DNA from: a virus
DNA: 41,352 nt
Virus record (IMG/VR): IMGVR_UViG_3300022468_000344
Direction: 5' to 3' (one strand)
The notes beneath the pieces were generated by a model, which saw nothing but the letters and a program-made list of their open reading frames with translations, made no database searches and was not told the DNA's origin. Below, piece by piece: positions 23,003 to 35,608 of the stretch; within the stretch, counting starts at the first letter, position 1; every line of letters begins with the position of its first letter. Both the position numbers and the translations under genes were made by a program.

Positions 23003-23031
23003 ACTATACCGCCAACGGTACAGCATAGCAA
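23003..23031 (-). promoter_or_regulatory. Sigma70-like promoter (TTGCTA-N17-TATAGT) abutted by an ATGCAT operator
   Basis: -10 at 23003-23008 and -35 at 23026-23031 (minus strand). It shares CGGTATAGT with two other promoters. Confidence 0.45.
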
Positions 23032-23102
23032 GCATTTATGCATAATTTATGTGAAAAAACGTGCTAATACTGCGGAATACATCAAGGGGTTAAGTGCTGG
23101 AT

Positions 23103-23116
23103 ATGCATAAATGCAT
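23103..23116. promoter_or_regulatory. Operator-like 14-mer ATGCATAAATGCAT (perfect)
   Basis: Exact copy of a motif recurring at regulatory sites. Confidence 0.6.
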
Positions 23117-23310
23117 TGAGTTTTGTATTATACGCCCGCACTGTTTTTTGCTTTATAATCGGCACTTTGGTACAGTTTGGGGGCTTGCATGGGGTGCAAG
23201 TAACCTAAATTATAAATATATAATAAAATCATGCACTTAACCTCACAAAATGCCCATTTGTATAATTTGAGTATTAGCATAAACCTCTAATACTATTCAC
23301 TGCTTTAAAT

Positions 23311-23387
23311 CAGCGTGTAGCGCAGACTGGTAGCGCACTACCTTGGGGTGGTAGGGGTCGGAGGTTCAAATCCTCTCACGCTGACCA
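23311..23387 (+). tRNA. tRNA-Pro (anticodon GGG), 77 nt, CCA encoded
   Basis: Manual cloverleaf. Acceptor CAGCGTG/CACGCTG, D-stem GCGC/GCGC, anticodon stem CTACC/GGTAG with loop TTGGGGT, and T-arm GGAGG-TTCAAAT-CCTCT. C1-G72 and A73 are typical of bacterial tRNA-Pro. Confidence 0.9.
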
Positions 23388-23406
23388 ATCACTTTTTACT
23401 CATAAG

Positions 23407-23434
23407 CGGGGCTTTCGCCCCGGTGTTTATTTTT
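23407..23434 (+). terminator. Terminator after the tRNA
   Basis: CGGGGC-tttc-GCCCCG followed by a T-rich tract (gtgtttattttt). Confidence 0.55.
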
Positions 23435-24026
23435 CTGTTTTTTCTGCTTTGGCGTCCATAACTGCCAGTATCACATTTAGCGGCGTCATTACCCCGCCCA
23501 TAAAGTAAAACGCCCTTAAAAACTCGGTGCCGTGCTGGTTGACTACAAGGTGCACATTAACGCTAACTGGCAGGCCTTTAAACATATCGTGCAACTCCAA
23601 ACCGCGGGCATATTGTGCTTTGCGTTGCTCCATAATATCGCGGATTGATTTAACGATTGCCGTGGCGCGCTCATTCTCTTTGCGCTCAGCCTTAACAACT
23701 TCAGCGCATTTAATTGCCGCTCTCAGGTTAACCAAATCCTCAATTTGATTTACTGCCTCGGCTGACTGAGGAAACACGGTTGTTGCTAATTCGGCATGTT
23801 TGGCTTTCCAGTTGTGCAAATCAGGCATACCCCAATAAACGTTTTCTTGAGCCTCGGTGCGCTCAGCATGCGGAATTTCCAAATACATATTTTGAATTTG
23901 GCCTTTTAAAATTTCATAAGCGCGGCTAACGTCGCTCAAAGCCTCTTTTTGTCCAGCCTGAGAAGTAAATCCAGCCTCAAAGGCTTTGGTTGCTCGCTCT
24001 ATGTAAAACCCAATCGTTTTTGCCAT
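23427..24026 (-). CDS. Hypothetical 199-aa protein between integrase and tRNA (moron position)
   Basis: GGGAG SD and its own promoter-like element at 24059-24087. No recognised motif. Confidence 0.7.
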   Translation of the reverse strand: MAKTIGFYIERATKAFEAGFTSQAGQKEALSDVSRAYEILKGQIQNMYLEIPHAERTEAQENVYWGMPDLHNWKAKHAELATTVFPQSAEAVNQIEDLVNLRAAIKCAEVVKAERKENERATAIVKSIRDIMEQRKAQYARGLELHDMFKGLPVSVNVHLVVNQHGTEFLRAFYFMGGVMTPLNVILAVMDAKAEKTEK

Positions 24027-24058
24027 TTTAAAACTCCCGTTGCGTTGTTGATGTTGTT

Positions 24059-33633: not shown

Positions 33634-33842
33634 GCGTGCAATGCGTAACTTGCAAAAGCTTTTCGCTGAAAAACAAACAAAGCGGCACCTCGCCAATGGC
33701 CGTGCATGGTTTTGGGTATTGCGAGCATGAGGCAACCGGCACATACACAAGCGCACGCTACCAGCGCAATTGCGCCAAACACAAAGAGGCCGCACCCGCG
33801 ACGGTTGAGGCAAGGATTGAATTTTTAACAAAGGGAAAATGA
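33630..33842 (+). CDS. Hypothetical Cys-containing 70-aa protein
   Basis: ATGA overlap. CVTC...C..H pattern. Confidence 0.6.
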   Translation: MSVQCVTCKSFSLKNKQSGTSPMAVHGFGYCEHEATGTYTSARYQRNCAKHKEAAPATVEARIEFLTKGK

Positions 33843-34210
33843 AAATGGAAAACACAATACAGTTACTTGAAAAACACAAAACAGAATTTAGGCCCGGCTT
33901 CACAACTTGGGTAATGCAAAACTGGACGCTTTACTTGGCTTTTGAGGCTGAGGCTTTACACATAGCGCACTCAGGCCGCACGCATTACAGCGCCCGCACC
34001 ATTGGCGAGTATTTGCGCCACCAAACAACGCACCGCGAGATTAACAGCCCGTTTAAGTTAAACGACCACACTATCCCGGACATGGCACGCTTGTTTGCAC
34101 TACGCAACCCGGCACATGCAAGTTTGTTTGCTTACCGAGCCTCACCAAACCGGCCAGCGCCTAAGCATGCCCGCGTTAATGCATTTATGCATGAAAGGGC
34201 GGCGGCATGA
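33839..34210 (+). CDS. Hypothetical 123-aa protein
   Basis: ATGA overlap at both ends. Confidence 0.65.
   Translation: MKMENTIQLLEKHKTEFRPGFTTWVMQNWTLYLAFEAEALHIAHSGRTHYSARTIGEYLRHQTTHREINSPFKLNDHTIPDMARLFALRNPAHASLFAYRASPNRPAPKHARVNAFMHERAAA
34179..34192. promoter_or_regulatory. Operator 14-mer ATGCATTTATGCAT (perfect), intragenic just upstream of rusA
   Basis: Exact reverse-orientation copy of the motif. Confidence 0.5.
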
Positions 34211-34749
34211 ATAAAATTGTTTTTCACATACCCGGCACACCAGTTGGCAAAGGTCGCCCAAAGTTTGCGCGCCGCGGCAATTTTGTAACAGCTTACACAC
34301 CTGAGGAAACCGCCAGTTATGAAAATTTAGTAAAGGTTAAGGCAATGGATGCAATGCGCGGGTGCAAGCCGCTTGAGGGCGCATTGTCGGCGCATATTTA
34401 TTTAATCGTAACCCCGCCGGAAAGTTGGAGCAAAAAGAAAAAAGCCCAGGCACTAAATGGCGAGATTTACCCGACCAGCAAGCCGGACTTGGATAACGTG
34501 ATTAAGGGCATTTTTGACGCCATGAATGAGATTGTTTACAAGGACGACAAGCAAATTATTTCATTGCTATGCATTAAGCGCTACGGCGACACCGCGCATG
34601 CGCAAGTGCAAATCAGTGAATTTGTGGAGGCCGCGCATGACAGCTTACCCAGCACAATTTTACCGCGACCCCAGCGAGATTGTGGATGCAATACGCCGCC
34701 AGCAATGCGACGGGTGCGAGAGCGAGGACGTGATAATGCTGGCCGGTGA
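34207..34749 (+). CDS. rusA: RusA-family Holliday junction resolvase with ~40-aa C-terminal extension
   Basis: GTPVGKGRPKF...KPDLDNVIKGIFDAMNEIVYKDDKQI motifs. The tail overlaps the next gene in another frame. Confidence 0.85.
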   Translation: MNKIVFHIPGTPVGKGRPKFARRGNFVTAYTPEETASYENLVKVKAMDAMRGCKPLEGALSAHIYLIVTPPESWSKKKKAQALNGEIYPTSKPDLDNVIKGIFDAMNEIVYKDDKQIISLLCIKRYGDTAHAQVQISEFVEAAHDSLPSTILPRPQRDCGCNTPPAMRRVRERGRDNAGR

Positions 34750-34849
34750 AAAGGTGCGCTCATGTTCAAAGGGTAAAAAGCACAGCGACAACAGCGGCCA
34801 ACGTTGCAACAATTTTAAGCGTAAAGGGGCAGGCAATGCAGTTAAGTAA
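34637..34849 (+). CDS. Hypothetical Cys-rich 70-aa protein
   Basis: GGAGG 6 nt before ATG 34637 (within listed ORF 34526..34849). CDGC...C...C pattern. Confidence 0.5.
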   Translation: MTAYPAQFYRDPSEIVDAIRRQQCDGCESEDVIMLAGEKVRSCSKGKKHSDNSGQRCNNFKRKGAGNAVK

Positions 34850-34973
34850 TTGGCAGATTTTTGGCTTGGGTATTGTGATTGGCATGTATTTGCTTGCCTC
34901 GCTAGTTGGCGTTGTGCTGGTACTTACAAAGAAAGCCGAGCGCGCAATTGAGGAGGTTTTTAGCAATGAATAA
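34836..34973 (+). CDS. Small membrane protein (45 aa)
   Basis: ATG 34836 within listed ORF 34746..34973. TM helix IFGLGIVIGMYLLASLVGVVLVL. Confidence 0.5.
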   Translation: MQLSNWQIFGLGIVIGMYLLASLVGVVLVLTKKAERAIEEVFSNE

Positions 34974-35580
34974 TCCGATATTCCAAAGCACAAGCCAAGC
35001 AATCCATTTTAGTTTTTTAATTGAGGCATACGAACCCGGCGCCGAAAGTGCAATGGGCAAGATATTGCGCCGGCACTTGGAGGAGCTAGGCATGAGCACT
35101 GGCGAGCGCGAGCCAAGCAGTATTGACTTTGGCGGCCTCAGTGCAATGGAGGTGCGCGGACAAGCGGCCATGATACGCTCAGCAATCAACACGCATTTAA
35201 CGGCGTGCGAGGCGTGGGCAATCAAAGCCAAGTATGGCCAAACCAAAACCATTGAGCGCCACGGCAAGCCCAAGTCTTACGTTTTTACCCCGGAGCGGGT
35301 GCACGCTATGCGCCAGCTTGCACATAACTTGGCGCCGAATTATTCAAGCATACCCAGCAATGCGGTTGTTTGGCTAATTGCAAGGGCATGCGGCGAGCTT
35401 GAGCATGTGCGGCCAACATTTAGGGATATTGAGGAGCAAGCCGGCGGCAGTAAAAGCGAATTGTGCCGGGTGTTTCCTCAGATTAAACACGCATTGCGTG
35501 GCTTGGAAAACCGCGGCATTGATAAGCTAACGCCGATATTTCAACGCGAGGGCATAGTGCCGGATTATGCCCATGCATAA
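34966..35580 (+). CDS. Putative late-gene regulator (Q-position; sigma70 region-4-like C-terminal HTH)
   Basis: GAGGAGG SD before ATG 34966 (listed ORF 34906..35580). C-terminal FRDIEEQAGGSKSELCRVFPQIKHALRGL. It is the last gene before the late promoter and terminator. Confidence 0.5.
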   Translation: MNNPIFQSTSQAIHFSFLIEAYEPGAESAMGKILRRHLEELGMSTGEREPSSIDFGGLSAMEVRGQAAMIRSAINTHLTACEAWAIKAKYGQTKTIERHGKPKSYVFTPERVHAMRQLAHNLAPNYSSIPSNAVVWLIARACGELEHVRPTFRDIEEQAGGSKSELCRVFPQIKHALRGLENRGIDKLTPIFQREGIVPDYAHA

Positions 35581-35594
35581 ATTTATGATGTTTA

Positions 35595-35608
35595 ATGCAT
35601 TTATGCAT
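35595..35608. promoter_or_regulatory. Operator 14-mer ATGCATTTATGCAT (perfect) abutting the late promoter -35
   Basis: Overlaps TTGACA by 1 nt. Confidence 0.6.

Follow-up and report, generated by a model that had tools for sequence, protein, structure and literature searches.

A set of 14-bp sites, (TT)ATGCA-WWWW-TGCAT(AA), found in the 41,352-nt IMG/VR virus record IMGVR_UViG_3300022468_000344 (hereafter the window, which means this whole stretch of DNA), is likely to constitute dyad operators for dimers of the phage's own XRE/HTH_3 immunity proteins. The 170-aa CI-like helix-turn-helix (HTH) repressor encoded by related phages is most likely the principal binder of these sites. The window is a full temperate-phage genome, circularly permuted, in which the gene order runs from the portal gene (39838-41292) across the window ends to a Mu-F-like gene (75-650) and matches the order in the relative L006. 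The phage group to which it belongs consists of uncultured, unclassified temperate phages.

The abundance of the motif in the window is well above the level expected by chance. Perfect copies of ATGCATWWATGCAT occur at 23103, 31862, 34179 and 35595, at the coordinates listed by the earlier note, which had been made from the sequence alone, and none was found in 100 dinucleotide-preserving shuffles. The one-mismatch copies reported there at 23030, 27655, 31116 and 33604 were also borne out, and a further copy of this type, at 26845, had been overlooked. Single hexamers ATGCAT are indeed present at 31141, 31172 and 35573, whereas the one claimed at 31194 reads ATGCAA. The assumption that the motif is rarer by chance than observed agrees with the 15 copies carrying at most two mismatches, against 1.29 expected. 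The weight-matrix check that had been proposed led to the same result: with a matrix built from the sites of relatives alone, the window sites being left out, 13 window sites reached at least 15 bits, while the best score in random sequence averaged 12.8 bits. The same matrix favours TT and AA flanks. Pairs of hexamers (at most one mismatch) were counted 12 times at a gap of 2 nt and 0-3 times at each other gap between 0 and 30 nt, the value for Markov-1 random sequence being 0.18, and the dyad pattern ATSCAWWWWTGSAT is represented by seven perfect and five one-mismatch sites, compared with 0.26 expected. The literature search revealed no paper that ties ATGCAT to a phage operator.

The distribution of the sites is strongly uneven. 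All 13 sites of at least 15 bits lie within 23030-35608, none was found in 36-41 kb or in 1-20 kb, and 26 kb of structural genes contain no credible site; the network had been called genome-wide, a description too broad for sites confined to 23.0-35.6 kb. Intergenic sequence together with the last 35 nt of genes makes up 11% of the genome, and it holds ten of the 12 best sites according to an automated count (P about 1e-8) and 11 of the 12 on the curated gene map. The sequence at 12864 (TTGCATTGATGCAT) fell outside the 30 best matrix matches and was taken as a chance occurrence.

The symmetry of the sites was determined from relatives, both metagenomic and deposited in IMG/VR, which were retrieved via the HTH protein, the integrase and the 204-aa protein described below. 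They form at least five clades, namely clade 1 (L002-L004), clade 2 (L006, L009, L015), clade 3 (L010-L014, L016, L017), clade 4 (L018, L021, L025) and a separate clade represented by L020. Clade 3 contains 27 ATCCAT half-sites versus 15 ATGCAT half-sites, and its sites are composed of ATCCAT-WW-ATGGAT or of mixed half-sites. The unit reads as a 14-bp dyad, that is, an inverted repeat ATSCA-WWWW-TGSAT, because clade 3 shows ATCCAT followed by ATGGAT and never the direct arrangement ATCCAT-WW-ATCCAT. The same observation ruled out a direct-repeat or iteron reading. The hexamers in 8-bp phase on which the earlier note had built its motif are an apparent feature only, which results from the fact that ATGCAT is its own reverse complement. 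Moreover, site positions are conserved in at least five clades, including those in which the identity of CI drops to 40-47%. The proposal that the copies at PR, at PL, at the 23003 promoter and at the late and ATPase promoters form a regulatory network gains support from the conservation of positions and geometry across several clades.

The densest cluster of sites is situated between the divergent HTH_3 genes cI and cro. Relatives of all clades carry a 170-aa-class HTH_3 gene located between the 117-aa and 80-aa genes and divergent from the latter. In Pfam, the 170-aa CI matches HTH_3, HTH_31 and HTH_26 only, without a peptidase S24 domain, and the 80-aa Cro-like HTH_3 protein (31870..32112, plus strand) matches HTH_3 with an E of 5.7e-5 and, among PHROGs, phrog_9425 ('transcriptional repressor'). 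The perfect operator at 31862..31875 has the top matrix score (28.6 bits), overlaps the start codon (31870) of the 80-aa gene and lies at about +26 to +39 of the hand-read PR; its position is occupied in clades 1, 2 and L020. PR itself (31799..31827, plus strand) is composed of TTGCTA (31799-804), a 17-nt spacer and TTAAAT (31822-27). The promoter scan missed it because position 2 of the -10 is not A; its ATTGC and TAAAT blocks are conserved in alignment A1. The spacer and -10 of PR are covered by a pair of 14-mers (31810-23 and 31818-31) that overlap in the middle hexamer, and this pair is conserved in L002-L006 and L019. The triple hexamer noticed here earlier is correctly placed at 31810-31831, but the sequence reads ATGCAT-CT-ATGCTT-AA-ATGCAT, so its middle hexamer is imperfect. 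In L003, which has kept cI, the OR sites occur at 3714, 3786/3794 and 3838.

Both genes start inside a site. The cro-like start codon of the window (31870) and the cI start codon of L003 (3717-3719) each lie inside an ATGCAT half-site, which offers ATG on either strand, and as a result the CI and Cro-like proteins both begin with Met-His. The hand-read cI promoter of the relatives is TTCACA-18-TAATAT, and its predicted transcription start falls at or next to the ATG, which suggests that the cI mRNA is leaderless, as in lambda.

A comparison with four relatives in alignment A1 revealed that the window carries a deletion of about 295 bp, the junction of which lies near 31750-31760. The remnant of cI (31525..31752, minus strand) comprises the last 75 codons and the stop, in frame and undamaged, and a stop codon precedes it at the junction. 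The deletion removed cI codons 1-95 with the start codon, and also one operator, the one containing the start codon (ATGCATACTTGCAA in L003). The window genome is probably a recent cI-deletion, clear-plaque-type derivative of a temperate phage. As judged from the gene content, the 80-aa Cro-like protein is the only intact candidate binder in the window genome. Without its own repressor, the operators of this genome could be occupied only by its Cro-like protein or by the CI of a resident homoimmune prophage. The loss of the N-terminal half of CI from the window also accounts for the absence of the probable principal binder from the three candidates considered by the earlier note. Among these, the plausible one is the 80-aa HTH protein; the 204-aa protein is disfavoured by its AlpA-like fold and by its distribution among phages, and the 117-aa protein has no detectable DNA-binding domain.

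The co-occurrence of the motif with the immunity genes bears on the origin of the binder. Ten loci that encode a homologue of the 204-aa protein (40-44% identity) and no homologue of CI or Cro contain 0-2 weak sites each, none of them at the late promoter, and they retain TTGACA, a GACAA-type spacer element, the -10 and the terminator at that promoter. L026, with a CI about 35% identical, has a motif that has drifted to A[TG]CCAAAAATGG[AC]T and is present only at positions equivalent to OR and PL. The motif thus tracks the CI/Cro pair, which favours a phage-encoded binder from the immunity module, and the spread of sites to other promoters is suggested to be a trait of the closer clades. The putative recognition helix of CI and of the 80-aa protein follows the pattern Q-(S/A/P/T/H)-T-I-(G/S)-R-(I/L/V) in every clade, and QSTISRI of the 80-aa protein resembles QSTIGRI of CI. 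Since the helices are alike, both proteins would read the same sites, as in 434 or lambda, and the operator ATGCATAAATGCAT is the predicted target of both. A change from S to A in this helix was considered as the cause of the half-site shift from G to C and rejected, because the Cro of L019 has QATISRI and nevertheless ATGCAT sites.

The sites located outside the immunity region are associated mainly with promoters, of which the positions given earlier proved accurate. The generic promoter scan found 18 promoters against 17.7 expected, which is no enrichment, and that at 23003 was the sole named promoter it called, the others being hand-read. The promoter claims therefore rest on hand reading and on conservation, and three of the promoters (SSB operon, ATPase/int operon, late) are backed by the conservation of the -35/-10 blocks in relatives. 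At these three the 14-mer extends into the -35 by one base or more and is centred near -41, the exception being the ATPase promoter of the window.

The PL operator cluster consists of sites at 31116-29, overlapping 31124-37, and 31141-54, with a weaker half-site copy at 31172-85. The cluster, located between g117 and g79, is kept in all clades with three sites. The hand-read PL (31136..31164, minus strand) is composed of TTGCAA (31164..31159), 17 nt and TAATAT (31141..31136); it is predicted to read into g79, the exonuclease and RecT, and was not called by the promoter scan. Its analogue in L018, TTGCTT-17-TATTAT, has a site on each side. In every clade, the adjoining 117-aa gene (31227..31580, minus strand) is placed downstream of cI, with about 55 nt shared between its 5' end and the 3' end of cI. 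The 117-aa protein gave no match in Pfam, PHROG, PADLOC or among solved structures, and no DNA-binding domain was detectable in it; its AlphaFold2 model was unusable, with a mean predicted local distance difference test score (pLDDT) of 44. An operator is found just downstream of RecT in L002 (5178), L006 (91) and L011 (1347)/L016 and not in the window, where the corresponding position (28870-28906) contains a GC-rich hairpin (28881-28900) instead.

Two operators precede the leftward operon of the single-stranded DNA-binding protein (SSB), which extends from 22958 to 20394 and encodes a 77-aa protein, DUF4942, HTH_17 and SSB. The proximal one (23030..23043) overlaps the -35 by 2 nt and has its centre at about -41, and the distal one (23103..23116) is perfect and is separated from it by 73 bp. 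This spacing is exactly 73 bp in every clade (L015, L016, L017 and L018 in alignment A9). The SSB-operon promoter (23003..23031, minus strand) is TTGCTA-17-TATAGT, and GGTATAGT is invariant in it in the same alignment. The promoter of the ATPase/int operon (27619..27647, minus strand) was hand-read as TTGCTT-17-TATAGT upstream of a gene for a 585-aa SMC/AAA ATPase, and its TTGC and GGTATAGT are conserved (alignment A10). The operator of this promoter (27655..27668) lies 7 nt upstream of the -35 in the window, and in clades 3 and 4 it overlaps the first T of the -35 (alignment A10). A further operator (26845..26858, ATGCATATTTGCAT; 23.8 bits, one mismatch) is intragenic, at about codon 245 of the ATPase gene. 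It is kept in every relative whose locus spans that part of the gene, despite a change of residues in the encoded protein, N-A-N-M-H-K versus N-A-F-M-D-K (alignment A5). The ATPase (25822-27579; SMC_N, AAA_15 and AAA_23) shows weak matches to the defence ATPases LmuB, PtuA and GajA, and its gene is the first of an operon, at the end of which are a DUF4224 gene and the integrase.

Two other sites are located at junctions between rightward-operon genes, and no promoter-like sequence was found near either of them. The operator at 33604..33617 falls within the final 30 nt of the DUF6475 gene, with 13 nt between it and the start codon of the following gene, and occupies the same position in clades 1 and 2. 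The perfect operator at 34179..34192 falls within the final 32 nt of a 123-aa gene, the RusA start codon following 15 nt later, and is conserved in clades 1-3 (alignment A6).

The remaining perfect operator (35595..35608) adjoins the late promoter, its last T also serving as the first base of the -35, and it has a degenerate partner at 35573-86. This geometry is shared by L006 of clade 2, L010, L011 and L013 of clade 3, and L020, and it is degenerate in L021 and L025 (alignment A4). The late-control module (35608..35696, plus strand) comprises the -35 TTGACA (35608-13), the spacer element GGACAA (35620-25) and the -10 TTAAAT/TAAATA (35631-37), so that the promoter reads TTGACA-17/18-TAAAT in alignment A4. 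A -10-like TACTCT/TATTCT is conserved downstream of the late -10, at 35643-48, and a strong intrinsic terminator follows at 35665-35696, with a stem-loop at 35665-88 and then a T-run. The spacer element GGACAA/GGGACA is conserved even in relatives in which the identity of the 204-aa protein is 40-44%. The gene of this protein (34966..35580, plus strand; 224 aa from an upstream TTG start) ends shortly before the promoter. The AlphaFold2 model of the 204-aa protein had a mean pLDDT of 80 and a predicted template modelling score (pTM) of 0.74, and the sole Foldseek match below an E of 1e-3 was 7XYB_G, AlpA in complex with RNA polymerase (E 1.6e-4, probability 1.0; TM-scores 0.60 and 0.71, the latter normalised to the target; 23% sequence identity). 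AlpA of Pseudomonas aeruginosa is a Q-like antiterminator whose binding element at the alpB promoter, GGGACG, is situated in the stretch between the -35 and -10; it requires a -10-like pause element and bypasses the downstream terminator (PMC9371919). The 204-aa protein models as an AlpA/Q-type late antiterminator, not as the operator binder, and the region 34966-35696, with its TTGACA, GGACAA, TACTCT and terminator, would make up a PR'-tR'-like late switch. About 270 bp of GC-rich DNA (35700-35965) separate the late terminator from a second terminator-like hairpin (35968-35985) before terS, and neither a convincing open reading frame nor an Rfam match was found within 35700-35965.

If the sites act as operators of the immunity protein, CI in a lysogen would silence several promoters directly rather than via a cascade. 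PR would be silenced from the sites that cover its spacer, its -10 and the cro start codon, and PL from the sites over its spacer and start site. The SSB-operon, ATPase/xis/int and late promoters would be silenced from a site that touches the -35 or lies just upstream of it. The junction sites and the intragenic ATPase site may play the role of roadblocks or of anchors for cooperative looping. The two sites upstream of the SSB operon, separated by seven helical turns, may be occupied by two cooperatively bound dimers, which is proposed because the 73-bp spacing is invariant.

Several points weigh against the assignment of the sites to CI and Cro and against repression as its outcome. The assignment of the binder rests on sequence comparison, and the promoters over which the sites lie were mostly read by hand, in a genome where the generic scan showed no enrichment. 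A centre near -41.5, as found at three promoters, is the classic position of a class II activator, and repression from there is assumed. Binding of Cro during lytic growth to the perfect operator that adjoins the late promoter would seem counter-productive. The part of a solved structure that CI matches is residues 94-196 of SPC32H Rep, which we take to be an oligomerisation domain and not the DNA-binding domain. The comparison with loci devoid of CI and Cro is confounded by possible host differences (GC 47-62%), and two scans of species-representative genomes identified no host.

An alternative which we regard as unlikely is that one HTH protein, Cro-like or CI, represses PR and PL and activates the late, SSB-operon and ATPase/int promoters from -41.5. 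The contact of lambda CI with sigma region 4 at PRM is a model for such activation. In all clades examined, the overlap of the late-promoter site with the -35 is limited to the first T, the SSB-operon promoter has a matching geometry, as does the ATPase promoter in clades 3 and 4, and the window genome keeps all these sites perfect although it has lost cI. However, none of the three promoters looks activator-dependent, the late -35 being a perfect TTGACA and the other two having TATAGT as the -10. The shift of the ATPase site by 7 nt in the window would also break a class II contact, and the late promoter already possesses a positive regulator in the form of the AlpA-like antiterminator. A broader version, in which this dual outcome is combined with an early-to-late switch atop AlpA-type antitermination and with a Rep-like tetramer bound at the 14-mers with shared half-sites and at the 73-bp pair, is doubtful.

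Binding by a host global regulator or nucleoid protein recruited by the phage is very improbable. In its favour, the sites are AT-rich at the centre and located at promoters, and the genome scans found no host whose regulon could be compared. The half-site, however, shifts with the CI/Cro clade (ATGCA, ATCCA, A[TG]CCA), the densest cluster falls exactly between cI and cro with both start codons inside half-sites, and phages devoid of this CI/Cro pair are also devoid of the motif. It is hardly conceivable that the 204-aa late-region protein binds or is loaded at the sites, even though a perfect site lies 15 nt past the stop codon of its gene and adjoins the late promoter. According to the AlpA-type model, the element recognised by such a protein, GGGACG in AlpA, sits between the -35 and -10, and it is exactly this spacer that contains the conserved GGACAA/GGGACA in the window and its relatives; the ten phages with homologues have no ATGCAT sites. 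The AlpA fold match and these motif-free phages are the reasons for which the 204-aa protein was set aside, and operators of the CI/Cro pair are the explanation that is preferred.

As regards the remaining part of the genome, the late genes extend from 36006 across the window ends to 20336. The leftward block contains the SSB operon, tRNA-Pro(GGG), the integrase, the SMC/AAA ATPase, RecT and a RecE-like exonuclease, and the rightward block contains the 80-aa HTH_3 gene, replication genes, RusA and the 204/224-aa gene. No close relative was found among deposited phage genomes (megablast of 6 kb; tblastn of the 80-aa and 117-aa proteins), and the portal protein is 60-65% identical to portals of Burkholderia, Acinetobacter and Bordetella phages. 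Two scans of species-representative genomes with Cro alignments detected no prophage of this group, and the host was not found in this way. The full-length tRNA-Pro(GGG) (23311-23387), the sole Rfam match in the window, is flanked by the integrase side and by the SSB-operon operators, a position that is presumably attP, and among the relatives a tRNA-Pro(GGG) at that position was detectable in L017 only. A near-identical leader, AACTTAGGAGC, which all relatives have conserved, precedes the start codons of leftward genes or operons at 22676, 22962, 27590 and 31105 (minus strand). A 248-aa protein (27677-28423) matches a PHROG annotated as queuine tRNA-ribosyltransferase and has no counterpart in L002; it is possibly involved in DpdA-like 7-deazaguanine DNA modification.

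The operator and the recognition helix would together define the immunity specificity of an uncultured group of temperate phages. One repressor apparently has direct control of five or more promoters, among them an AlpA/Q-type late promoter, which places the system nearer to P1 and L5 than to lambda. The window genome is a natural cI deletion with all operators intact, and for this reason it should grow lytically and yet stay sensitive to the immunity of its relatives' lysogens, a status that is relevant to phage use and to the interpretation of viromes. Moreover, the drift of the half-site among clades (ATGCA, ATCCA, AGCCA), accompanied by paired CI and Cro sequences, provides a system for studying the evolution of immunity specificity.

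Among known systems, the arrangement of 434, lambda and P22 is similar in that an HTH_3/XRE repressor and cro diverge from a region with several dyad sites, and in that PL has a cluster of its own. The 434 operator is a 14-bp ACAA-N6-TTGT with conserved outer bases and a variable A/T-rich centre, like the sites described here. The proteins, however, are related to those of 434 by the HTH_3 fold alone, with no further sequence relationship. The present system also differs from 434, lambda and P22 in its at least six further conserved sites outside OR and OL (one late, at two promoters, at two junctions and one intragenic), in 14-mer pairs that overlap by a shared half-site, and in a CI that lacks peptidase S24. 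By function, the nearest counterparts are the dispersed P1 C1 operators and the stoperators of cluster A mycobacteriophages. Phage P1 resembles the network proposed here in that a single repressor, C1, directly controls many dispersed promoters and does not depend solely on a cascade of antitermination; its operators, however, are asymmetric 17-mers, C1 is unrelated to HTH_3, and P1 is a plasmid prophage.

In cluster A mycobacteriophages, the L5 repressor binds as a monomer to asymmetric 13-mers, of which there are more than 20 genome-wide and the orientation of which follows transcription (PMC9283540). One immunity repressor, which is predicted here, and many sites, some of them in short intra-operon gaps, are common to both systems, whereas the sites of the window are symmetric, number about 13 and are absent from the structural operon. 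Within one rightward operon their central bases differ, 31862 having AA while 34179 and 35595 have TT, and at one and the same position they vary among relatives. The sites therefore lack the features that define stoperators, namely an asymmetric sequence, a dependence on orientation and a distribution that includes the late genes. D29 is the lytic repressor-deletion relative among cluster A phages (PMC5712189), and the window genome has likewise lost its repressor by deletion, unlike its temperate relatives, and has kept the presumed sites of the repressor.

The only solved relative of CI is SPC32H Rep, with a phmmer E of 3.4e-10 to 5D4Z and an alignment of CI residues 8-109 to Rep residues 94-196 (5D50), in the C-terminal and not the N-terminal part of Rep. 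Rep binds palindromic DNA as a tetramer (PMC9638917), and such binding to palindromes would fit the presumably cooperative 73-bp pair. No Ant-like gene indicating an antirepressor of the SPC32H Rep type was recognised among the scanned proteins in a search that was not exhaustive. The late region shares with AlpA and 21Q an AlpA-like fold, a spacer element (GGACAA compared with GGGACG), the -10-like TACTCT and a downstream terminator, and we know of no description of an operator abutting the -35 for the alpB promoter or for lambdoid PR'. Summarizing, the system is best read as a CI/Cro operator regulon, in which 434-like dyads at OR and OL appear to have been extended to three further promoters and to internal sites.

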